The notes under the pieces are model-generated. The model worked only from the letters and a program-made list of their open reading frames with translations. It did not search any database and was not told the origin of the DNA. A stretch of 64,000 bases of DNA, from NCBI GenBank assembly GCA_038087875.1, contig CM075990.1, forward strand, positions 4,590,001 to 4,654,000, given 5' to 3'. Positions 2,421 through 57,646 of the stretch are shown piece by piece. Within the stretch, counting starts at the first letter, position 1. Each line of letters begins with the position of its first letter. The position numbers and the translations under genes are program-made. This DNA comes from Malacoraja senta. Lineage: Eukaryota.

Positions 2421-4249
2421 GTTACACTTTGTGATACTTATCTGCCGGCTAAAAAAACATGCGCTGAAAAGCTTGAAAATGACTCAGCGTGAGTCAGATG
2501 AGAACTATTCAATGTAGGAAGATTATGTGCTAGAAAAGTGTCAGGAGCTACACACTCGTATTCATTCAGCCTTGAGCAATCTTCCCAGACACCAACCAAG
2601 AGAGGTGAACCAGTGTGAACATGTTCAAACTCAAAAGCAGTAATTGCTTTCAAATTATACTCTTTAAAAAAGTTAGTCTATAACATGCCTTTCAAAATTA
2701 ACTTCAATGCTTGACAAATTAACATATTGGGGTTTTGCATGTCATTCCAGCCCATGAACACATCTGATCATAAAAGTAACATGCTGAGTTCACCCCCATT
2801 CTAAATGATAGTATGGAGCGGCAAGACTGACTGTGCATTTACGTTTACTGGCTAATAATAAATCTCACATTGTCTCCTTTTAAACTATGAAAGAGTCGGC
2901 TAAGTGTCCAGTTGAGCCATAGAATAAGTTCATGAATCCAAACTCCATGCCTTCTCAGTCACATCAGTCTGAAGAAGGGTCTCGACCCAAAACGTCACCC
3001 ATTCCTTCTCTCCAGAGATTCTGCCTGTCCTGCTGACTTACTCCAGCATTTTGTATCAATCCTCCATGTCTCATGTTCCTTAGCATCCTATTTATCCCAG
3101 GAGAGAGAGCAAGCAATGGGACAACTCTTGGTACACTGTTTGAGGCAGGGTCTCGACGTGAAACGTCACCTATCCATGTTCTCCGGAGATGCGGCCCGAT
3201 CTGTTGAGTTACTCCAGCACTTTGTGTTCCTTTCTAAAACAACTGTCGACAGCTAACACACTGTACTACTTTTATACGCCAGGTCACTCAATCCTTTCCC
3301 ATCCACTGCCCAGAACGTAAACATATGTTTCCTCAAGGCGGCTCCAGGGTTCACTGAGATCGTAGTCATCCTGCATCTAAAGACCAATTTCCCACTGGAT
3401 CCCAAATTCTCCATACCCTTCACGTGCAAAATGCATCGTAAACTCAAATGACTGAGCATCCACAGATCTTAAATCAAAGTCAGTCAAAGTATCCTTTATT
3501 TGTCATTCAGACCTTTCGGTCTGAACGAAATGTCGTTGCCTTGCAGTCATACATATAATAAATAACAAAACACACAATAAACACAAATTTAACATCCACC
3601 ACAGTGAGTTCACCAGGCACCTCCTCACTGTGATGGAAGGCAAAGGTCGTAGTGAATTTAAATAGTAGTGAATTTCAAATACTGTATCTACAAATATCTA
3701 CAGTATATAAAAAAGCATTTCCTTTCAACTCATCCCTCCCTATCTTAAGCCTACGTCTTTAGTCTTATTGATATTAATATCAGTTTATTATGGTCACATG
3801 TATCAAGATACAGCGAGAAGCTTTTGATCACCAATCAAAACAACTGAACCATCCTATCACCGACTACAGATGGTCCTGACCTCCCATCTACCTCATTGGA
3901 GACTCTTGCACTAACTTTAATCGGACTTTACCTTGCACTAAACATCATTCCCTTTATCCTGCATCTGCTTATTGTGGGCGGCTTGATGGTAATGATGTAT
4001 AGTCTTTCTGCTGACTGGATAGAACGCAACAAAAAAGCTTTTCGCTGTTCCTCGATACATGTGACAATAAACGAAACTGTCACACGCTACGCGAGGACAA
4101 TCAACAACACAAGAATAGGTGGAGCAATGAGAAAAATACCAGAGTGCAGAATATAGTTTGTCAGCGTAGTTGCGTTAGAGTTCCGGAGAAAAAGTCCAAT
4201 GTGCGCAATGATGTAGGTTGGAAGATTATATCCCAGCTCTCCACTAGGG

Positions 4250-4707: not shown

Positions 4708-5226
4708 TAGGGTTGCCAACTATCCCGTATTAGCCAGGACATCCTGTATATTGGGCTAAATTGGTTTGTCCCATACGGGACTGCCCTTATCTCGTATTTG
4801 ATTGTTACTATTTGGGTCGAGGGGAATGTCGGGTCAGCGCGCCGTGTCCGGCCCGCCTCACCTGGCACGACGTAGTGCAGCCCATGGAGTGCAGCAGCAG
4901 CACCTTGCCAGTGGCCCCGTCAGTCGGCAGCCCGGCCAGCTGTCCGACCTTCGGACCTTCGGTTACCACCAACACCACCACCCCTCCTTATGGGCAATCA
5001 TCGGTTCATGAGTTGGATGGGGTGTTGGACTCTGTGCGCGACATCGCGCGTGGGCCAAATTTCCTCAGCTGGCCCCTCCGGCTGGGCTTTGTGTGCAGTC
5101 CAGCACCCGGGCCAACTCATCATTCACCCAGCCACGGCCGAGTCGGTCAACAAATTGCCGTCGGGAATTTGTCCCTTATTTTGACCATTTGTCCCTTACT
5201 TGGGAGCGAGAAAGTTGGCGACCCTA
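4708..5226. mobile_element. Non-autonomous hAT element
   Basis: TIR TAGGGTTGCCAAC/GTTGGCGACCCTA; 8-bp TSD ACTGTAGC/ACTGTATC. Confidence 0.85.
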
Positions 5227-12036: not shown

Positions 12037-12547
12037 ACCAGCGATTGCCCCATACACCAGCGACTGCCCCATACACCAGCACTACCCCATACACCAGCAC
12101 TACCCCATACACCAGCACTACCCCATACACCAGCGACTACCCCATACACCAGCGACTGCCCCATACACCAGCGACTGCCCCATACACCAGCGACTGCCCC
12201 ATACACCAGCGACTGCCCCATACACCAGCGACTGCCCCATACACCAGCGACTGCCCCATACACCAGCGACTGCCCCATACACCAGCGACTGCCCCATACA
12301 CCAGCGACTGCCCCATACACCAGCGACTGCCCCATACACCAGCACTACCCCATACACCAGCGACTGCCCCATACACCAGCGACTGCCCCATACACCAGCG
12401 ACTGCCCCATACACCAGCGACTGCCCCATACACCAGCGACTGCCCCATACACCAGCGACTGCCCCATACACCAGCGACTGCCCCATACACCAGCGACTGC
12501 CCCATACACCAGCGACTGCCCCATACACCAGCGACTGCCCCATACAC
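12037..12547. repeat. Minisatellite, 19-bp unit ACCAGCGACTGCCCCATAC, ~27 copies including a few 18-bp variants
   Basis: Visible directly in the sequence; 19-aa periodicity in all reading frames. Confidence 0.97.
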
Positions 12548-18424: not shown

Positions 18425-18632
18425 AGGAGGGAACTGCAGATGCTGGTTTACACCGAAGATGGACACAAAATGCTGGAGTAACTCAGCGGGTCAGGCAGCA
18501 TCTCTGGAGAAAAGGAATAGGTGACGCTTTGGGTCAAAGTCTGAAGAAGTGTCTCAACTCGGAACGCCACCTATTCCTTTTCTCCAGAGATGCTGACTGA
18601 CCAGCTGAGTTACTCCAGCATTTTGAGTCTAT
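18425..18632. repeat. Representative palindromic repeat made of inverted Penelope terminal repeats; similar at ~6970-7075, 19655-19850, 19880-20095, 20703-20945, 31470-31692, 36880-37120, 46575-46765, 58630-58842
   Basis: acacaaaatgctggagtaactcagc...gctgagttactccagcattttg around a central ctgaagaa motif; same sequence as the 3' end of the Penelope element at 46310-46440. Confidence 0.8.
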
Positions 18633-19148
18633 CTGAACCCCAACTACCTTGTGCTGGGTTATTTTGGCTGCAGAATATTATCCTCAGTGGGTGGCAAGAG
18701 AAGCAGGGTGGAATTGATGGGAAATGGGAAGTATAGGTTGCAGGGAAATGTGGCGGAATGGGATTGCTCCAAGAGCCAGCATGGACTCAATGGGCTGAAT
18801 GGTCTCATACAATGGCGCAAAATATTAAAAAACAAATGTAAAAATTCACCTTAATTTTCAGGTGATATTTCCTGCATTGCTATAATTCATGCAAACCTCT
18901 AGGCATTTAACATTGCCCAACCATAACGGGGATTTTCTTTTAGGCATTTAACATTCCCCGACCATAATGGGGATTTTTCTTTTAATTGCCTATACAACAA
19001 TGAGCGCAGTATCTGTAAGAAAATAGGCGAACTGGAACCAAAAATCCAAATGTATTATGGATACTAAATCTTGCTACATAATGAAAAGTAGTTAGTAACC
19101 ATTACAGGAATATGTCAGAAAGGTGCAGAATCATAAGCCTGTTATTAA

Positions 19149-20606: not shown

Positions 20607-21328
20607 CTGAGGGGTAAAGAAAATATCAGTTAAAATTCAGTTGGAAATATCTGGCATCTACCAATTTCCTTTCATCCAAAGCAGGATGATACCAAGTGTG
20701 TCGGAAGGAACTGCAGATGCTGGTTTATACCGTAGATACAAACTGCTGGAGTAACTCAGTAGGTCAGGCAGCAACTCTAGAGAAAAGGAACAGATGATAT
20801 TTTGGGTAGGAACCCATCTTCAGACAAATACATACTGAGAATCGAGTCCAAAGAAGGGTTCCGACACCAATCTTCACCTATTCTTTTTCTCCAGATATGC
20901 TGCCTGACCCGCTGAGTTACTCCACCATGTTGTGTCTATCTTCTAGATCAAGGGTTCCCAACCTGGGATAAAACCTGAAAGACACCAAGCCTGAAACTGT
21001 ACTTTCATAATGACCCGACTAGAACCCTAGATAAATGTATTTATTTTCTCTGCTGGATTATAACCAAGATAATTGGAGAAAGGTTTCAAGACAGTGACTC
21101 CTCAAATATGACTCCTTCACAGCAGACATTACTACTTTCGTTCAGAAAGGATTCAAACTCGATATCTAAAATTGAAGTCTTCTCTTTCCAACCTCCAATA
21201 CTAATGAGAATGGGAATCTAAATAGGATTTAGGCTGCGAGCACCTTACCCAAATGATATGTCCGCTTAGTTACTCCAGCACTCTGTGTCTTTTTTTAATG
21301 TAAACCAACATCGGCTGTTCCTTGTACA

Positions 21329-24060
21329 CAGGGCTCGAAATTAGCGGTTGCCCGGGTGCCCCTGACCACTCAAAGCGCTGCCGGGCAACCTAAACGCCGA
21401 GTCATTTTGCCCGGCTTGGCAACCAGATACTGGTTTGTACCGAAGATAGACACAAAAAACTGGAGTAACTCCGCGGGTCAGGCAGCATCCCTGGAGAAAA
21501 GGAACGCAACGTGTTGTGTCGGTGACGGCTGTGTTGCGGGGCAAATATACTAGGTGCGGGGTGAGGAAGGGTCGGAGTGAATGACGGGCCCCGAACAGCG
21601 GCAGCAGCGGCCGCGACAGCGGCTCCACCGCCTCCCCCTCCCTGACAGTGGTCGCTGCTTGTTTCAAAACAAACCCTCCCGCACGCCGAGGCCTCCCCCT
21701 CCCTCCTCCCGGCCTCGGCGTGCGGGAAGGTTTGTTTTGAAAAAAGCAGCGGCCGCGATCAGGGAGGAGGAGGCGATGGAGCCGCTGTCGCAGCCGCTGC
21801 TGCCGCTGTTCGGGGCCCGTCATTCGCTCTGACTCGTCTGAAGCAGCTGCACCAAAGATCCTATAGCTATAGGATCTCTGAGCTGCACCGCTTGGCCCCG
21901 CACCTTGCTGTTGGCTGGCGGAGGAGGGAGGCGGTGGCGAGGAGTTCCCAACGGCCAAGGCAGCGGGGCGATGTTGTCTGAGGAGCAGACCTTGCTTCCT
22001 CCCCACCTCGCTCCCTCTCTCTCTCTCTCTCTCTCTCCCTCTCTCTTGTACCCCCCCTCCACCCCCCCTTATCCTGGGACCCCTCCACTCCATCCCACAC
22101 TGATCCCCATTCCGCCCTCTATTCAGTCCTCACTGACCTCGCCTGTGCTCCCCTCCCCATCAATCCCCCCCCCCCATCTATTCATCCTGCGCTGATCACC
22201 CTATCCACCTCGCATTGATTCTCCTCCCACCACCTCCCCCCCCATCCATCCTCCACTGGTTCACCAATTCACCATGTACTTGCCCCTTTCCCATCCATCC
22301 TGCACTTCTCCTCCATCCATCCTGTACTGATCCCCCATCCTTCCTGTACTAATCCACGCATTCATCCCGTACTAACCCACCCTCCATTTACCCTGCACCT
22401 TCCCCCTTCCACTCATTCATCCTGTAGTGATCCCCCATTAATCCTGCACAGACCCTCCGATCCACACTGTACTGACCCCCCTCCCCCATTCATCCAGCGC
22501 TGATCCCCCCCCCCCATCCATCCTGTACTGATCCTCCCATTCAAGAATGGGGGGAACAGTCTGAAGAAGGGTCTCGACCCTAAATGTTGCCTATATCCTT
22601 CGCTCCATAGATGCTGCCTCATCCGCTCAGTTTCTCCAGCACTCTTGTCTACCACCATCCATCCTGTACTGAACCCCCCCATTCAACACCACTGACATCC
22701 CCCGTGCTTTCCCCTCACAATTTTACCTACTCAAACCAACACGTACTAATTCACCTGCCTCAATCCATCCATTCTGCACCGACTTCCTTCTAAACCCCCC
22801 CCCCCTCCATCTATCCACCCTGCACTGATTCACACACACCCCCCTCCCCGACCCTATTGTGCTGGAAATGTCTTCAGAGCGGACATTGACTATGTTTGAT
22901 AACGAAATGCAATCAAATGTGTTTTAATTCCCAATGTTATTATTTGTTTTAATCCATAAAGATCGATTAATTAAATTGTGAACACGTGAAACATTAAAAC
23001 CGCAGTGTTCGATTGTCACTGCTGCCGTTGACACGTTATTACAGAATTAATTTTAACGGCAAATCAATGCTCTTAATATGGAGTATCAGTACTGTCGTTA
23101 TTTAATGAGCAACATTCACAACTATACTTTGGATTTATCCAGGTTTTACTTCTACAGTCAATCATATACATCACAAATTTGGTCAGGAGATATTTCAGTT
23201 GAAATTTTAACGTTAATTCTGAAGTGGGAATGATGGAAACAGCGTTTATCAATAATTTTTTTTTAAATCTGGTGCTTACAAACTGGGTATCTTCATTGCT
23301 GTTCACAACACGTACAATTAATCTGAATGTCCGGTAATGTGGCGTCTTGACACCTTTAAATATATTACCAAAAGAACATTTGCTGCAGTTATGTCCTTTG
23401 GCCATCTCTTGTCAGCTAGTGTAATGTTTAACCTGTCAGATGGATATAGTTGGTTTTAACAGCTATTATCATAAAATGCCTGTAGAAATGTCCTTGCAAC
23501 CTGTATATTTTGTTGTGGATAAATTATGTGGGAAGCGAGAGTGTTTCTGTACCAATAGCAATAACGACCCATGCTATGGCCATGTTATGGTAATTTTCGG
23601 TCCTTCACAGAAAACATGCTTGCATCAATCAATCTGTAGTGTGCATGGTAAGCATATATGTTACCATGGTCCAGGATTTATTGACACAGGTTGAACATAC
23701 GCTGAATAATCCAACCACATTGTTGTTTGGAAGTGGAAAGAACTAATAGAAATTGCATTAATTGCAATGTGTAAAAATAGTTGAGATACTGTCTTATAAT
23801 TTTGCTGCATGTCATTGTGGGATATATCATGTCTTGATTGGTGAATATGTTTAGTTTGTGACTTTATTTGAAGCAGAAATAATATGTGAATGCTTCATTG
23901 AGTATAATTCCGACTGGTAACTACGCACTTCGTCCGAGCACATTATCGCACGCGTCATGCAAGCCGTCTTAAATTACCACCTAAACTGTCAGTTGGCAAC
24001 CTAAAAAGCTACCAAGGTTGCCCGGCTGGCAACAGGGAAAAAAGTTAAGCGAGAGCCCTG
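21329..24060. mobile_element. ~2.7-kb non-autonomous hAT-like element with nested repeats, in the GLUD1 intron between exons 10 and 11
   Basis: Ends CAGGGCTC/GAGCCCTG; subterminal GGTTGCC/GGCAAC motifs at both ends; flanks TGTACA/TGTATA (possible 6-bp TSD). Confidence 0.65.
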
Positions 24061-24290
24061 TGTATATCCCACTCCCAACCACACCTCACCCGCTCACCTC
24101 CCCACACACCCCTCCCACGCCACTCCCCACCCCCTTATAGTTCTTCCTCTGCCCAATTTAAGGCTTGCAACACCATTTTAGCAGCAGAGCAAAATAAACG
24201 TCAATTCATTCTAAAAATCACAAGACCACTTTCGCTGCTCACCACGGTAGTGACCTTCAGCACTGTGCTCGTAAATTCACACAAGCATCA

Positions 24291-26182: not shown

Positions 26183-26382
26183 NNNNNNNNNNNNNNNNNN
26201 NNNNNNNNNNNNNNNNNNNNNNNNNNNNNNNNNNNNNNNNNNNNNNNNNNNNNNNNNNNNNNNNNNNNNNNNNNNNNNNNNNNNNNNNNNNNNNNNNNNN
26301 NNNNNNNNNNNNNNNNNNNNNNNNNNNNNNNNNNNNNNNNNNNNNNNNNNNNNNNNNNNNNNNNNNNNNNNNNNNNNNNNNN
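26183..26382. other. Assembly gap (200 N)
   Basis: Run of exactly 200 N, typical of a scaffolding placeholder of unknown true size. Confidence 0.99.
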
Positions 26383-36024: not shown

Positions 36025-38082
36025 TAATGGATGGAAATGGAAAATAATCAAAAGGGCCTTTACAAGAAAACAATGAGCTGGAAGTTATGCTACAAATATT
36101 CAATGTTCTGGTTAGACCACACCTGAAGTCTTCTTCTCCAAATCTTGGGACAGATATGTTGGCCTGGAAGGGAATGTAGAGTGCATTTGCCAGAATAAAA
36201 CAAGAGCTCCGAGGTTTAAATTATAAAGATATATATGTCAAGGAGCATGAGGTCTTTGAATAATAAGACGGCAAGTGGTAACAGCTGAGTTCTAGCAAAA
36301 CCCAATGAGGCATCAGTGAGTAGATTATTGATGAGTAAGTGCTGCTTGATAGATCTGTTGATAATACTTCCCTTCAGTTTGGTGATGATTTAGAAAAGGC
36401 TGATTCGGTGATGATTCCCAGGATTGGATTGGCCCTGCTTTTTGTGAACAGATCCAATCCTAGATTAGTTTAGTTTATTGTCATGTGAAGGGAATTATCA
36501 CCCAATCATTATTTTCTCATTATTGTTTAATTGTCATCATGAGATATGGTAGGACAGCAAACCCATTGACAATTTTCAATTTCAGTGAAACAAAACCATT
36601 TTGTCTATTCACAAATCAATCTGCTTTTATTAATCAATTGAACCCATTCTATTTAAAGGGCTAGCCCTCAATTTGCACTCTTTCCCAGTTTACTCCATAG
36701 AACTCTGCAACCTCACCTCTTACACCTACAATAACGTTTCTGCAATTGTATTCTCTGCACCTGACTCTTGCTGCTTGGTGTTGAAATTGCCCACAGACGT
36801 TGGAAGCATCACCATGGTGATATATGACATATGACAATGGTGAGATGAGGTCGTTCTGTGAACTCTTACATCTTCAGATACAGAAGATGGACACAAAATG
36901 CTGGAGTAACTCAGTGGGACAGGCAGCATCTCTGGAGAGAAGGAATGGGTGATGTTTTGGGCCAAGGCCCTTCTTGAGAAGAAGCAAACCCATTGATAAT
37001 TTATTCGGAAGAAGGGTCTCAACCCAAGACGTCACCCATTCCATCTCTCCAGAGAGGCTACCTGTCCCGCTGAGTTACTCCAGCATTTTGTGTCTATCTT
37101 CAGTTTAAACCCGCATCTACTTACAAAATTCTTAAGGGGTTGGACAGGCTAGATGCAAGAAGATTGTTCCCGATGTTGGGGAAGTCCAGAACAAGGGGTC
37201 ACAGTTTAAGGATAAGGGGGAAGTCTGTCTTTTAGGACCAAGATGAGAAAAAAATGTCACACAGAGAGTGGTGAATCTGTGGAATTCTCTGCCACAGAAT
37301 GTAGTTGAGGCCAGTTCATTGGCTATATTTAAGAGGGAGTTAGATGTGGCCCTTGTGGCTAAAGGGATCAGGGGGTATGGAGAGAAGGCAGGTACAGGAT
37401 ACTGAATTGGATGATCAGCCATGATCATATTGAATGGCCTACTCCTGCACCTATTTTCTATGTTTCTATGCAGTTCCTTCCTACACTCTTCAGACACAGG
37501 CTTGCTTGCACATGTGCCCAAACTGCTCTTAAAGATAAAGTAACCATCCTATTCATCTTCCTAGCCTCCGGTTAACTCCAGGCTGTGGTTGCTGATCTCT
37601 GCAACATCTTACAGTTTGCTGCGAGCTGCAGTTTCAGTTCTTCCAGACTCCGTAACTTTTGTTCAGCCACTGGAGCAGGCAAAACTGGCTCAGTGGTTTG
37701 CTGACATTGCAAACTTTTCTGAAGTACAGGCATTTGGAAATCATCGTACTTATGCAGTGTTCAAGGACATCCCTGGCAAGATTGCCAGAGCTGCTGGCAG
37801 AGTCTCCTTGCTCCCCTGTGTGTAATCATATAATTTACATTATAATAATGCTGTTATCATATCATCATTAGGATAACAGCAATAGAATTTAGTAGCGTGC
37901 TGGACAAATATTTAAAAGGATAGAAATCTTTTCAAGGCAGTGGAAAGAGGATAGGGCAAAGAAAATCAGTTAGATTGTACTGTACGTTTAGTTTAGAGAT
38001 ACAGCACGGAAACAGGCCCTTCGGCCCACCAGGTCCCGCCGACCAGCGATCCCCGCACATTAACACTATCCGACACCGACTA

Positions 38083-38577: not shown

Positions 38578-39318
38578 CACACAGACACGCACACAGAGGG
38601 AGACACACACACAGGGAGACACACACACAAGGAGACACACACAGTGAGGCACACATACACACGCAGGGAGACAGACACACAAGCACACACACACCTTTTC
38701 TTCCCCCTCCCTCCATCCACCCCTTCCTTCCTCCCATCCTTCCCTCTTTCCTCCCCCACCCTCTTTCTCCACTTTCTCCTTTCCTTCCTTCATCCCCTTT
38801 CTACATTCCCTCCCCTTGTTTCGCTTTGCCTCCATCCCTCCCTTTTTTTCTTTCCCTCTCTCTCTCTCTCTCTCTCTTCCCCCCTCCCTCTCTCTCCCCG
38901 GCCACCCAATGGGGAGTCTGGCGGGCACGGTGTAGCGTGGATTGGCGGCGCTGGCGCTGCCGTGTGAGTTGGAGGGCAGGAGGGAGGGAGGGAGCGAGGC
39001 TGCAGCGGCGGCCGGCAGCGCAGCGCTCACAGCCGGCACATAGAGCTGCTGACACCCGGCGGCTGCACATCCAACCAAGAGAGAAGAGACGCGACGTCAC
39101 ACAGCCGGCAACCGACGCACTTCCTCAGACCGTGCAGATCCCTGGCACGCGGCGCAAAGGGACAAACCAAAGATACTATAGCGGAGCTCCTCTAGTATCT
39201 TTGGGACAAACTGTGCAGGGACTGAACTCAGCGTGAGAACTCGGTCATGAGCGTGAGGGCGTGAGAATTTGCTCCAAGGCGTGATTCTCACGCTGGAAGC
39301 GTGAGAGTTGGCAGCCCT
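38578..39318. mobile_element. hAT-like element fragment (one terminus)
   Basis: Ends in GTTGGCAGCCCTG with repeated subterminal GCGTGA motifs; other end not found. Confidence 0.55.
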
Positions 39319-40014
39319 GCAAATAGCACGTGACCTCGATCAACCCAGCCTCGTCCCTGTTCAGGGAACACCTTCCTCTGAAGCAGTGGAGTGCCATGCT
39401 CCCACAATTGCACCAAAAGACAATGTTCATGGCTTGCCTCTAGGAGCTGAGCTGCCCCTGTTGGTGCAGGCTCCATTTAAATATTGGTCCTGGGTGCTGG
39501 TCCCAGTACTTGTTAAATGTACACTTCTGTATTTCCACCACCTGCATGTTTCTCTGTCTATTTGACTATTAAATTATTTCAGTGCTCCTAGATTTGGGGC
39601 TATTTAATAACTTCATGCCAACTGCATACATTGAAAAACGGATCACTGATCATTGCAAATACTTCTGCTAAACACTGCCAAGTATTATTACTTTGGCAGT
39701 CAATGCTGAGTAGACTAATGGATTTACTACCATTATTTTCCCCGTTGTAAAGATAAATATCTTTTAAACCAGTTCAACCTTTTCCTGTAAATACAATTAC
39801 AGGAGATTTTAATAGAAATGTGACTGCAGACATTTGCATGCCTGTTGCTAAATAGAATGTATGCCAGACTCCAATAGGAGAAGTTTCTAAAAAAAACTGT
39901 TGATAGTTTATTAAACTTGTATGTTTGTGATCACGTTGATGGGTTCATAACAAATTCGTTTCGCATTTTTCAGATTTAGTAGAGATTGTTGTAGAGAATT
40001 TTGGAGAATGTTAT

Positions 40015-48687: not shown

Positions 48688-50298
48688 CAGTGGCTTGCAA
48701 AACTTACCCCTTGAACTTTTCCACATTTTGTCATGTTACAACCACAAACGTAAATGTATTTTATTGGGATTTTATGTGATAGACCAACACAAAGTGGCGC
48801 ATAATTGTGAAGTGGAAGGAAAATGACACATGGTTTTCAAATTTTTTTACAAATATAAAACTGAAAAGTGTCGCGTGCAAAAGTATTCAGCCCCTTTACT
48901 CTGATACCCCTAAATAAAATCCAGTGCAACCAATTGCCTTCAGAAGTCACCTAATTAGTAAATAGAGTCCACTTGTGTGTAATCTAATCTCAGTATAAAT
49001 ACAGCTGTTCTGTGAAGGCCTCAGAGGTTTGTTAGAGAACATTAGTGAACAAACAGCATCATGAAGCCCAAGGAACACACCAGACAGGTCAGGGATAAAG
49101 TTGTGGAGAAGTTTAAAGCAGGGTTAGGTTATAAACAAATATCTCAAGCATTGAACATCTCACGGAGCACTGTTCAATCCATCATCAGAAAATGGAAAGA
49201 GTATGGCACAACTGCAAACCTACCAAGACATGGCCGTCCACCTAAACTGACAGGCCAGGCAAGGAGAGCATTGATCAGAGAAGCAGCCAAGAGGCCCATG
49301 GTAACTCTGGAGGAGCTGCAGAGATCCACAGCTCAGGTGGGAGAATCTGTCCACAGACAACTATTAGTCGTGCACTCCACAAATCGGGCCTTTATGGAAG
49401 AGTGGCAAGAAGAAAGCCATTGTTGAAAAAAAGCCATAAGAAGTCCCGTTTGCAGTTTGCCACAAGCCATGTGGGGGACACAGCAAACATGTGGAGGAAG
49501 CTGCTCTGGTCAGATGAGACCAAAATTGAAGTTTTTGGCCTAAATGCAAAACGCTATGTGTGGCGGAAACCTAACACTGCACATCACCCTGAACACACCA
49601 TCCCCACTGTGAAACATGGTGGTGGCAGCATCATGCTGTGGGGATGCTTTTCTTCAGCAGGGACAGGGAAGCTGGTCAGAGTTGATGGGAAGATGGATGG
49701 AGCCAAATACTGGGCAATCTTGGAAGAAAACCTGTTAGAGTCTGCAAAAGACTTGAGACTGGGGCGGAGGTTCACCTTCCAGCAGGACAACGACCCTAAA
49801 CATACAGCCAGAGCTACAATGGAATGGTTTAGATCAAAGCATATTCATGTGTTAGAATGGCCCAGTCAAAGTCCAGACCTAAATCCAATTGAGAATCTCT
49901 GGCAAGACTTGAAAATTGCTGTTCACAGACGCTCTCCATCCAATCTGACTGAGCTTGAGCTATTTTGCAAAGAAGAATGGGCAAAAAATCCAGTCTCTAG
50001 ATGTGCAAAGCTGGTAGAGACATACCCTAAAAGACTTGCAGCTGTAATTGCAGCGAAAGGTGGTTCTACAAAGTATTGACTCAGGGGGGCTGAATACTTT
50101 TGCACGTGACACTTTTCAGTTTTTTATTTGTAAAAAAATTTGAAAACCAAGTATCATTTTCCTTCCACTTCACAATTATGCGCCACTTTGTGATGGTCTA
50201 TCACATAAAATCCGAATAAAAATACATTTACGTTTGTGGTTGTAACGTAACAAAATGTGGAAAGGTTCAAGGGGTATGAAAACTTTTGCAAGCCACTG
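48688..50298 (+). mobile_element. Full-length Tc1/mariner transposon (DD34E, Passport-like); transposase 49061-50079 with one frameshift
   Basis: TA on both sides; ~210-bp TIRs CAGTGGCTTGCAAAA.../...TTTTGCAAGCCACTG with an inner direct repeat; GRPPK linker; WSDETK, QQDNDPKH and SPDLNPIE motifs with 34 residues between D2 and E; 1-nt deletion at ~49356. Confidence 0.96.
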
Positions 50299-53200
50299 TA
50301 AAAAACTATTTTGGATTTAAACAGGTTAGGAAAAAACTTTCTTGTAATTACTTCACAGTAATCAGGCACCATTGTCTCTTAAGATCATTGTTGCATCAAA
50401 TTAACCATAGGTGATTATTGAAATTGACTAGCAATCACTAATATTGACACATGCAACGATGCTCTGCTAAACAACGGAACATATAGCCTTCAATATTTTT
50501 AACTTGCATTAACAAAAATATACATTACTATTGAAAAGACCATTATTTTGAAATCCTGTGGGAAAAATAATATTTTTTATTACGTCTGAATCACTCGAGC
50601 CCCTAATCTCCTATTCCCCATTAGCACAATTGCCTGTATAAGGTGATTTTCTATAGCATGAGATTTCTTCGGAACGCAACTACCGTGTTCTAGCAGAAGT
50701 ACCTGCACCGTCATATAAATTAATTATTTTCATTAAATTATTGGTTCCTGGCAGTTTCTAGAATGTATTATCTATTTTAAACCCTTGAGTATAATATAAA
50801 GTAATTATTTGATATCTCTATAGTGTCTTTATTCCTTTGATCATTTGTCAAGGTGGACTTTGTCTGTAATTTTAAGCCAGGTTAGGACGACAAGGTCCAA
50901 CCTGGGAAAGCAGTTGCTGATTACTACTCTTTTGAGATTAGTGCTGTGGGTGTTGTCCCACTTGGTCCAATCACTGCTTGGTGGTGTGTCATGAACAGCC
51001 TGTAACAGGCAGGAGTCTGCCCTTTGAAACCTGATCCGAATGAATGACTTGTAGGTTGCAATAACATGAATAGATGGAATGCTATCGGGGGTGAGGGGAT
51101 TGATGGTTAATGAGTCGAAGGTTATGTCAAAACAAGCAGGGTTGAATTCAAGATTTAATTCATACAGTGCACTCTCCAAACTGACATGTGGACACATGAA
51201 AGAAATACCTATATCGATGATATTAATAAACAAACACAAGGACTGTCTAAATAATAACTGCCTTTAAACTTTATATTCTGATTTTAGATAGAAAATTCAG
51301 TCGACTGCTGTCAATATTTAAAAAAATAACACGGCACGGGGGCGCAGTGGTAGAGTTGCTGCCTTACAGCGCTCACAGCGCCGGAGACCCGGGTTCGATC
51401 CTGACTCTGTTCAGAGTTTGTACGTTCTCCCCGGACCGTGGGTTTTCTCCGAGATCTTCGGATTCCTCCTACACTCCAAAGACGTACAGGTTTGACTGGT
51501 TAATTAGCTTCAGTAAAATTGTAAATTGTCCCTAGTGTTGTAGGATATGTGCTGGGAACGGTTGGTGCAGACTTGGTGGGCCAAGGGCCTGTTTCCGCGC
51601 TGTATCTCTAAACTAAAAACTAAACTAAATCAGCTGGTTATGCATTGGAGATTCTTAAATATTGTTTTGGTTTTTAGTTTAGTTTTTAGTTTTAGAGATA
51701 CAGCGCGGAAACAGACCCTTCGGCCCATCGTGCCGACCAGCAATACCCATACCCAGCACTATCCTACACACTAGGGACAATTTACAATTTTACTGAAGCT
51801 AATCAACGTACAAACCTGTACATCTTTGGTGTGTTGAGGAATCTGGAGCACCCGTAGTAAACCCACATGGTCACAGGGAGAACGTACAAACTCCGCACAA
51901 ACAGCACCTGTAGTCAGGATTGACTTTGTTAAAGTCACATAAAAAGTGAAATCTTCATTAGTGAAGTTCACGGAACAGTGCTGTTAGGTTTAGATAGATA
52001 GATAGATAGATATGCCTTTATTGTCGTTCAGACCGAAGTCTGGACGAAATTGCAGCAGTCATACATATAATACAATATAAACAACAATAAACACATATTA
52101 ACATCCACCACAGTGAGTCCACCCAACATCTCCTCACTGTGATGGAGGCAAAAGTCTTAGGTCTGCAGTCTCTTCCCTCCTCTTCTCCCTCTGCGCTGAG
52201 GTGATACCCCCCGGGCGATGTTAAATCAGTTAAACCTGCGTAATGCTGTGCTGAAACTACTATCATTAGTTTCATAGCAAGTTCCATGGGACGTGTCAAC
52301 TTATAGTGCTGCAAATATACAGCCAGTTCTTGAAGAGGACCGGCACAGTGGTGCAGCGGTAGAGTTGCTGCCTTACAACGCCAAGACCCGGGTTCGATCC
52401 TGACTACAGGTGCTGTCTGTACAGAGTTTGTACATTCTCACTGTGACTGTGTGGGTTTTCTCTGGGTGCTCTGGTTTCCTCCCACATTCCAAAGGTTTGT
52501 AGGTTAATTGGCCTCTGTAAATTGTCCTGAGTGTAGGATAGAACTAGTCTACGGGGCGATTGTTGGTCGTCGTGGACTCGTTGGGCCGACGGGCCTATTT
52601 CTATCTCTAAAGTAAACTAATTACATAAAACATCATTTTTCTAACTGCAAAGAAGTGTTACTATTGAATGAATAGATGATTTAGTATGCAGTGGGCTTTT
52701 GAAGGGTTCACCCAGGGGGTCAGAATCTAGTGAAGAACATTGTTTACAAGTGGTGCATTCTTTATACACGGCCCCTCTGAAACCCCCCAGAGCCACAGCT
52801 GGATACCTGCGACAGGAACTCACCTGGAAGTCTCTAAGGCCTCCAGCATATGCAAGCCTGTCATGGAGGGAAAGACTGCGCTACCCATGTGTCTGGGCTG
52901 AAGGAAAAGAAAATGGAGTCTCATCTTCCCTGAATTTGGGTGAGCACCCAAATGTAGCAATGAGCTGCACTGTTTATGGAGCTGCAGCAACTTGGCATGA
53001 TCCTGAAGCTAGGAAGCTAAAAGTGGCCACAACACATAGGGAATGCACTGGAGCACAAGCACACCAGCTTCTGTTTCAATGGGAGTCATTGGGTTTCAGA
53101 GAGAACAAACTATGCAGCTGGAGTATTGACCATTGGAATGGTTTTAGGAGAAATAATATAAATCTTGTAGTTCTAGGGATAATATAAAAAAGGTCATCCA

Positions 53201-56550: not shown

Positions 56551-57646
56551 TCAAGTCAAGTCAAGAGAGTTTATTGTCATGTGTCCCAGATAGGACAATG
56601 AAATTCTTGCTTTGCTTCAGCACAACAGGATATTGTAGTCATAAATACAGATCAGATCAGTGTGTCCATATACCATAGAATATATATATATATATACACA
56701 CATCAGTAAACAGATAAAGTGCAATAGGTTGTTATAGTTCATGGTTTGATTTAAGTTGTGTTTAATAGTCTGATGGCTGTGGGGAAGAAGCTGTTCCTGA
56801 ATCTGGATGTTGCAGATTTCAGGCTCCTGTACCTTCTACCCGAAGGGAGCGGAGAGATGAGTGTGTGGCCAGGATGGTGTGGGTCCTTGATGATGCTGGC
56901 AGCCTTTTTGAGGCAGCGACTGCGATAGATCCCCTCGATGGTAGGGAGGTCAGAACCGATGATGGACTGGGCAGTGATTATGACTTTTTGCAGCCTTTTC
57001 TGCTCCTGGACGCTCAGGTTGCCATACCAAGACACGATGCATCCGGTCAGCATGCTCTCTACTGTGCACCTGTAGAAGTTCGAGAGAGTCCTCCTTGACA
57101 TACTGACTCTCCGTAATCTTCTCAGGAAGTAGAGGCGCTGATGTGCTTCCTTTATGATTGCATCAGGGTTCTGGGACCAGGAGAGATCTTCGGAAATATG
57201 CATGCCCAGGAATTTGAAGTTCTTGACCCTTTCCACCATCGACCCGTTGATATAAACGGGACTGTGGGACCCCATGCTACCCCTTCCAAAGTCCACAATC
57301 AGTTCCTTGGTTTTGCTGGTGTTGAGGGCCAGGTTATTGTGCTGACACCATTTGGTCAATCGGTCGATCTCACTTCTATACTCTGACTCATCCCCATCAG
57401 TGATACGTCCCACAACAGTGGTGTCGTCGGCAAACTTGATGATGGAGTTCGCACTATGACCGGCTATGCAGTCATGAGTATAGAGTGAGTACAGCAGGGG
57501 GCTGAGCACGCAGCCTTGAGGTGCTCCCGTGCTGATTGTTATCGAGGATAACACATTTCCACCAATACGGACAGACTGTGGTCTATGAATGAGGAAGTCA
57601 AGGATTCAATTGCAGAGGGATGTGCAGAGACCCAGTTCTGAGAGTT
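56551..57646 (-). mobile_element. Rex1/Babar-type (CR1 group) LINE, 5'-truncated, with RT C-terminal ORF 56751-57554
   Basis: GAPQGCVLSPLLYSLYTHDC...IIKFADDTTVVG...KTKELIVDF; (TTGAC)n 3' tail; one TGA stop just upstream of the ORF. Confidence 0.9.

Follow-up and report, generated by a model that had tools for sequence, protein, structure and literature searches.

In their geometry, the structures analyzed here match excision products described for Drosophila P elements and for a P-associated MITE. The Drosophila P transposase makes a staggered cut of 17 nt (PMC7776569), and repair of the donor site leaves two copies of the target site duplication (TSD) with fused stubs of the terminal inverted repeats (TIRs) between them, joined at microhomologies of 1-3 nt near the 3' ends (PMC5466332). 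In the fly assay the commonest short-microhomology product joined stubs of 16+16 that share a 2-nt overlap (3 and 9 isolates; Tables 1-2), and near-precise joins at long microhomologies formed the most frequent class (PMC5466332). TIR-only excision scars of P elements are thus a kind already known from fruit flies, and the staggered P cut leaving TIR remnants between TSDs, which the earlier note on this DNA had invoked, is documented (PMC5466332, PMC7776569). A natural case is that of BuT5, a P-associated MITE (PMC3698922), for which a 27-bp (12+15) footprint in Drosophila mojavensis was read by its authors as the result of excision (PMC3355041). Zebrafish THAP9 assayed in fly cells gave larger flanking deletions according to the accessible text (bioRxiv 10.1101/2024.03.22.586318), and neat stubs are therefore an unproven outcome for vertebrate P enzymes.

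The window, the whole stretch of 64,000 nucleotides analyzed here, is repeat-rich animal DNA with a CpG observed/expected ratio of 0.48, in which one short repeat unit has 31 matches; its short repeats suggest that it may come from a cartilaginous fish. At positions 21853-21880 it contains a 28-bp near-palindromic insert (site 1), whose two 14-nt arms are inverted copies of each other apart from one mismatch and adjoin directly, without a spacer. The left TIR stub (21853-21866, forward strand) measures 14 nt, or 15 nt if the central GC is shared, and the right stub (21867-21880, reverse strand) is its 14-nt inverted match with the one mismatch. Both are enclosed by the same 8 bases at 21845-21852 and 21881-21888, a perfect repeat. 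The coordinates were re-verified, and this part of the earlier description proved exact. Its reading as a TIR-only remnant with a TSD is likewise upheld.

Site 1 is hosted by an older 2.7-kb element of unclassified superfamily (21325-24064), whose ends match in inverted orientation over 12 bp, an outer TA included. No 8-bp duplication was found around this element, and a Pfam search of 11 of its internal frames returned no match above the cut-off; matches below the cut-off were dismissed as weak. The same host contains a 270-bp GC-rich foldback (21566-21838) with 128-nt arms of 90% complementarity and a 17-nt loop, which stops 6 bp upstream of the site 1 TSD and is present as a single copy in the window. 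Taken alone, site 1 probably has no function.

We scanned the window for inserts of 20-60 bp that are bounded by exact 8-bp repeats and have 10-nt inverted ends with at most one mismatch, excluding matches inside the 200-N assembly gap at 26183-26382. Two sites were recovered, site 1 (21845-21888) and site 2 (39160-39211), the latter absent from the earlier note. Among 200 block-wise Markov shuffles, one such structure occurred in two and two structures in none. A looser scan (CA...TG ends, inserts of 16-60 bp, 7- or 8-bp repeats, at most one mismatch) returned only the same two sites. Site 2 is a 36-bp insert with ends as in site 1, flanked by a perfect 8-bp repeat (39160-39167, identical to 39204-39211) of a sequence unlike that of the site 1 TSD. 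Its left stub (39168-39186, forward strand) is 19 nt long, and its right stub (39187-39203, reverse strand) comprises 17 nt, that is, the 19-nt arm minus 2 nt and with one substitution; position 8 carries the same variant base in both arms. The two sites share 13 of 14 bases in their left arms (P ~2e-7 for unrelated sequence), and all four matches to the arm at one mismatch or less in the window fall within the two remnants. Site 1 and site 2 are real and are part of a dispersed family.

Two sites in 64 kb correspond to 31 per Mb (95% interval 4-113), although the window was picked for one of them, so about half of this density is fairer. Site 2 lies in a GC- and CpG-rich stretch (38900-39319), about 110 bp inside a terminus near 39319 that we take to be hAT-like; no partner end with a matching duplication was found for this terminus in the window. 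The GC content of the surrounding 600-bp windows is 0.64 at site 1 and 0.60 at site 2, a value of 0.60 being reached by 3.2% of such windows. This GC-rich setting recalls the promoter bias of P elements, as a post hoc observation on two sites.

A third copy was found by scanning metagenomes with the 19-nt arm, which gave two matches. One of them, L001, was rejected as chance, since it has no partner arm and ~1.5 chance matches are expected per 1e11 bases. The other, on the animal-derived contig L002, is a 33-bp remnant with the partner arm directly adjacent, and its arm is matched by the left arm of site 2 except at position 8. No clean TSD encloses this remnant, the best candidate being a repeat that matches at 7/8 bases once a 3-nt offset is allowed; the contig stops 35 bases past the flanking repeats. 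The flanks (2945-3005) show a 9-bp tandem repeat to the left of the remnant and, at either edge of it, three additional inverted bases, a pattern that could stem from a further insertion or excision event at this position. A frame at 153-365 on the reverse strand resembles an immunoglobulin domain of the Roundabout receptor (E 2.5e-5; Pfam Ig_3 below cut-off) and is a probable exon for such a domain, which identifies the contig as animal host DNA. The CpG observed/expected ratio of L002 is 0.93 and the remnant is its only significant DNA match to the window, so the contig probably derives from an invertebrate. The L002 remnant backs the TIR family, not the TSD.

The recurrence of these ends bears on whether a transposon was involved at all. 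Matches of 14-15 nt do occur in large collections, and one arm was found at 45 viral and three bacterial-type loci, as would suit chance palindromes or locally templated repair insertions. However, for none of the 45 viral matches of the 15-nt arm was there a second arm within 80 bp, or one accompanied by a TSD, and no partner arm was found at L001, L003 or L004. Moreover, the ends are common to both window inserts and are not shared with their flanks. We consider an origin without a transposon extremely improbable, since the occurrence of common ends at unrelated sites already goes most of the way to refuting chance. In viral contigs there were no matches to the 19-nt arm and none to the two-arm pattern; two matches of the 19-nt arm in prokaryote genomes were rejected on inspection.

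With the longest arm as the reference, the three remnants were parsed into TIR stubs of 14+14 (site 1), 19+14 (L002) and 19+19 less 2 nt with a few substitutions (site 2). The terminus CAAAG is present in five of the six arms, the remaining one having a substitution. All three joins have AGCT at their center, and an equally valid parse is 15+15, 20+15 and 20+20 with a shared 2-nt GC. Site 2 and L002 each provide independent evidence for TIR base 15, and the 2-nt overlap at site 1 is therefore solid. At the 19/20 break, where TIR base 20 is visible only within joins, the overlap is presumed, and site 1 is the only remnant in which it has independent support. Under a null model of uniform trimming, 19-24% of random blunt joins look alike, which gives 0.007-0.013 for three; this suggestive and partly circular statistic favors joining through the GC overlap. 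The breakpoints repeat at two arm positions across the three remnants. The longest possible microhomology (6 nt, yielding a 22-bp product) was unused in all three, although long microhomologies predominated in the fly assay, and the 19-nt pattern used for the metagenomes is blind to such a product.

The same measurements bear on the option, kept in the earlier note, of an ultra-short MITE, here one mobile as units of 28-38 bp. Each remnant has two TIR ends, with a perfect TSD at the two window sites, and each folds as a hairpin (z = -3.1, -5.6 and -7.6), as would be expected of such units. However, the three copies have three different lengths (28, 36 and 33 bp), and variable length is what the earlier note had set for a footprint; because the lengths vary, they are not a fixed-length MITE, and MITEs are described in the accessible text as homogeneous in size (PMC3698922). 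Drosophila P also requires 138 and 216 bp of its ends, and Anopheles P-MITEs retain up to ~100 bp, according to the accessible parts of the source (PMC1562414). We regard independent mobility of such short units as improbable.

Two independent insertions with their own TSDs now hold only fused outer tips, of differing lengths. We favor, with a probability of about 0.6, the reading that site 1 and its kin are P-like excision scars made of the fused tips of one transposon family. According to this model, an element would have inserted and duplicated 8 bp, and a transposase making widely staggered cuts within the TIRs would later have released it, so that each flank retained a single-stranded 3' tail of TIR sequence. 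The tails would then have been trimmed by a few bases and joined via the 2-nt GC microhomology, and the excision and joining would have taken place in the germ line to be inherited afterwards. Tails of 19-20 nt would require a deeper stagger than that of the fly enzyme (17 nt) or else a few bases synthesized from the sister chromatid prior to joining. The scars themselves are most likely inert.

The inserts resemble Drosophila P donor-site joins, as described in the accessible text, in their flanking 8-bp TSDs, fused stubs, total length of ~30 bp, short microhomology and variable lengths. They differ from them in TIR sequence and in having stubs of up to 19 nt (20 nt with the overlap), compared with the 17-nt limit in the fly. 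The 17-nt fly mechanism proposed earlier for this locus does not apply here unchanged, as three of the six arms are ~19 nt long. In contrast to the products of the fly assay, they are also inherited genomic relics, and site 1 and site 2 lack templated filler. The BuT5 footprint is likewise a natural remnant of both ends between target duplications, but according to the accessible account it is an isolated example that lies at an inversion breakpoint, has 9-bp TSDs and derives from a known parent, whereas here several sites with 8-bp TSDs occur in a vertebrate-type host.

The arms longer than 17 nt would be obtained without new chemistry if a longer non-autonomous hAT or P element had collapsed in the absence of a long staggered cut. 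This main rival could follow two routes. The interior of a foldback MITE, extruded as a hairpin or cruciform, may have been lost between short GC repeats; alternatively, gap repair after excision may have aborted once a few bases of the TIR had been copied from the sister chromatid, to be followed by end joining. In favor of collapse, long inverted repeats are abundant in the window, and skate assemblies may contain a longer foldback element whose ends are of this kind. Neither route calls for a special transposase, and both are open to hAT elements, of which 8-bp TSDs and YARNG ends are hallmarks. Internally deleted elements do arise by gap repair, as far as the accessible part of the source goes (PMC1562414). 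Under collapse, however, insert lengths should grade continuously and intact or half-deleted copies should be common, whereas the two window sites and the one real metagenome match are all minimal, with both outer tips intact. The breakpoints also recur at the same two arm positions, although three remnants are a small sample. We therefore hold collapse to be unlikely, if the strongest of the alternatives to P-like excision.

A parent in the P superfamily was proposed in the earlier note. The remnants behave like P donor-site scars, while the 8-bp TSD and CA start fit hAT equally well and no long copy or transposase was found in the window or the collections scanned. By analogy with the fly scars, the parent element is a candidate member of the P superfamily. 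The TSDs, 8 bp and perfect at both window sites, fall within the 7-9 bp of P elements; L002 offers only the offset 7/8 repeat. A putative P-specific terminal form, CANRG, was not found in print in the literature accessible to full-text search. The TIRs start with CA in the YARNG pattern given for P (PMC2820524), but the accessible text on hAT elements reports YARNG ends together with an 8-bp TSD (PMC3014272), and this character does not discriminate between them.

Compared by eye, each of the two window TSDs matches the P target motif GTCCGGAC at 4 of 8 positions; both end in AC, which is a feature of hobo's motif as well (PMC3276498). Of the two fixed bases of the hAT target NTNNNNAN, each window TSD has one in either orientation, whereas both are present in the left 8 bases of L002 (PMC3276498). 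In hAT excision it is the flanks and not the element that end up with hairpins, and the accessible descriptions mention no such stubs (PMC3878927, PMC5499845). A hAT footprint has no element sequence and carries flank-derived palindromic bases, whereas the window sites retain 28-36 bp of TIR between two intact copies of the TSD. The 8-bp TSDs and YARNG ends are shared with hAT elements and their MITEs, but hAT excision alters the TSD and leaves no TIR stubs in the accounts available, and a hAT origin would need the deletion or the aborted-repair route.

No intact or partly deleted copy of the element was found in the window, nor any paralogue of either flank and hence no empty site. The viral, metagenome and prokaryote scans likewise yielded no long copy that could represent the parent element or its transposase. 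P/THAP profiles had no match in the 30 of 48 long window frames scanned, nor in 11 short frames, and Rfam gave no match in the window or L002.

Several other repeats were recorded in the window. A Tc1/Sleeping Beauty-like element (48690-50300) has long TIRs of 95-96% complementarity and a transposase split between two frames (49049-49426 with HTH_SB; 49246-50079 with HTH_Tnp_Tc3_2 and DDE_3). It looks young and is presumably a candidate for horizontal transfer, by analogy with fish Tc1 elements. A 519-bp MITE (4708-5226) with ~14-bp TIRs and a 7/8 target duplication is, we assume, hAT-like. The common short repeat occurs as close inverted pairs with 17-38-nt spacers at 18457-18634, 20733-20938 and 36880-37104, suggesting a palindromic composite element. 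There are also a very homogeneous minisatellite (12037-12547; 19-bp unit, 27 copies, 98% matches) and a LINE-derived reverse transcriptase fragment on the reverse strand (56754-57605; RVT_1 with ALKBH8_N).

Among described fish elements, zebrafish Pdre2/THAP9 and medaka Izanagi share CA-starting TIRs and 8-bp TSDs with the family reported here (bioRxiv 10.1101/2024.03.22.586318; PMC2820524). Their TIRs otherwise differ (13 bp and 27 bp), and the accessible texts on them neither describe TIR-only scars nor give the stagger at which these enzymes cut. A post hoc comparison by eye with the available Izanagi TIR gave a lead: 5 of its first 6 bases and 7/8 of an internal block are common to the arms, and 10/10 bases match the variant right arm of site 2. 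Within the openly accessible literature, neither this TIR nor such scars in cartilaginous fish were found; TIR tables in Repbase, Dfam or supplements may already name the family. The arm sequence, searched for in full texts, turned up in one unrelated paper, and the accessible part of a skate genome paper makes no mention of P elements (PMC12361510).

TIR-only scars go unannotated because they are too short for most repeat libraries. If the inserts are P-type footprints, their length spectrum would give the cut depth of an enzyme that has never been purified, would test the universality of the 17-nt stagger across the P superfamily, and would count past germ-line excisions in a vertebrate that were repaired by end joining. 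The match to the invertebrate-like contig L002 hints at a family that may be widespread or have been transferred between hosts. A bolder reading is a P family that cut at least 19-20 nt deep and whose inherited scars number thousands to tens of thousands in the genome of a vertebrate, probably a cartilaginous fish, with a near-identical TIR in an invertebrate-like animal; we put it forward tentatively, as a doubtful proposition. If it is true, a TIR conserved almost letter for letter across animals would imply horizontal transfer or unusually conserved ends, and the scars would be a fossil read-out of cut depth and of microhomology-mediated joining in the germ line.
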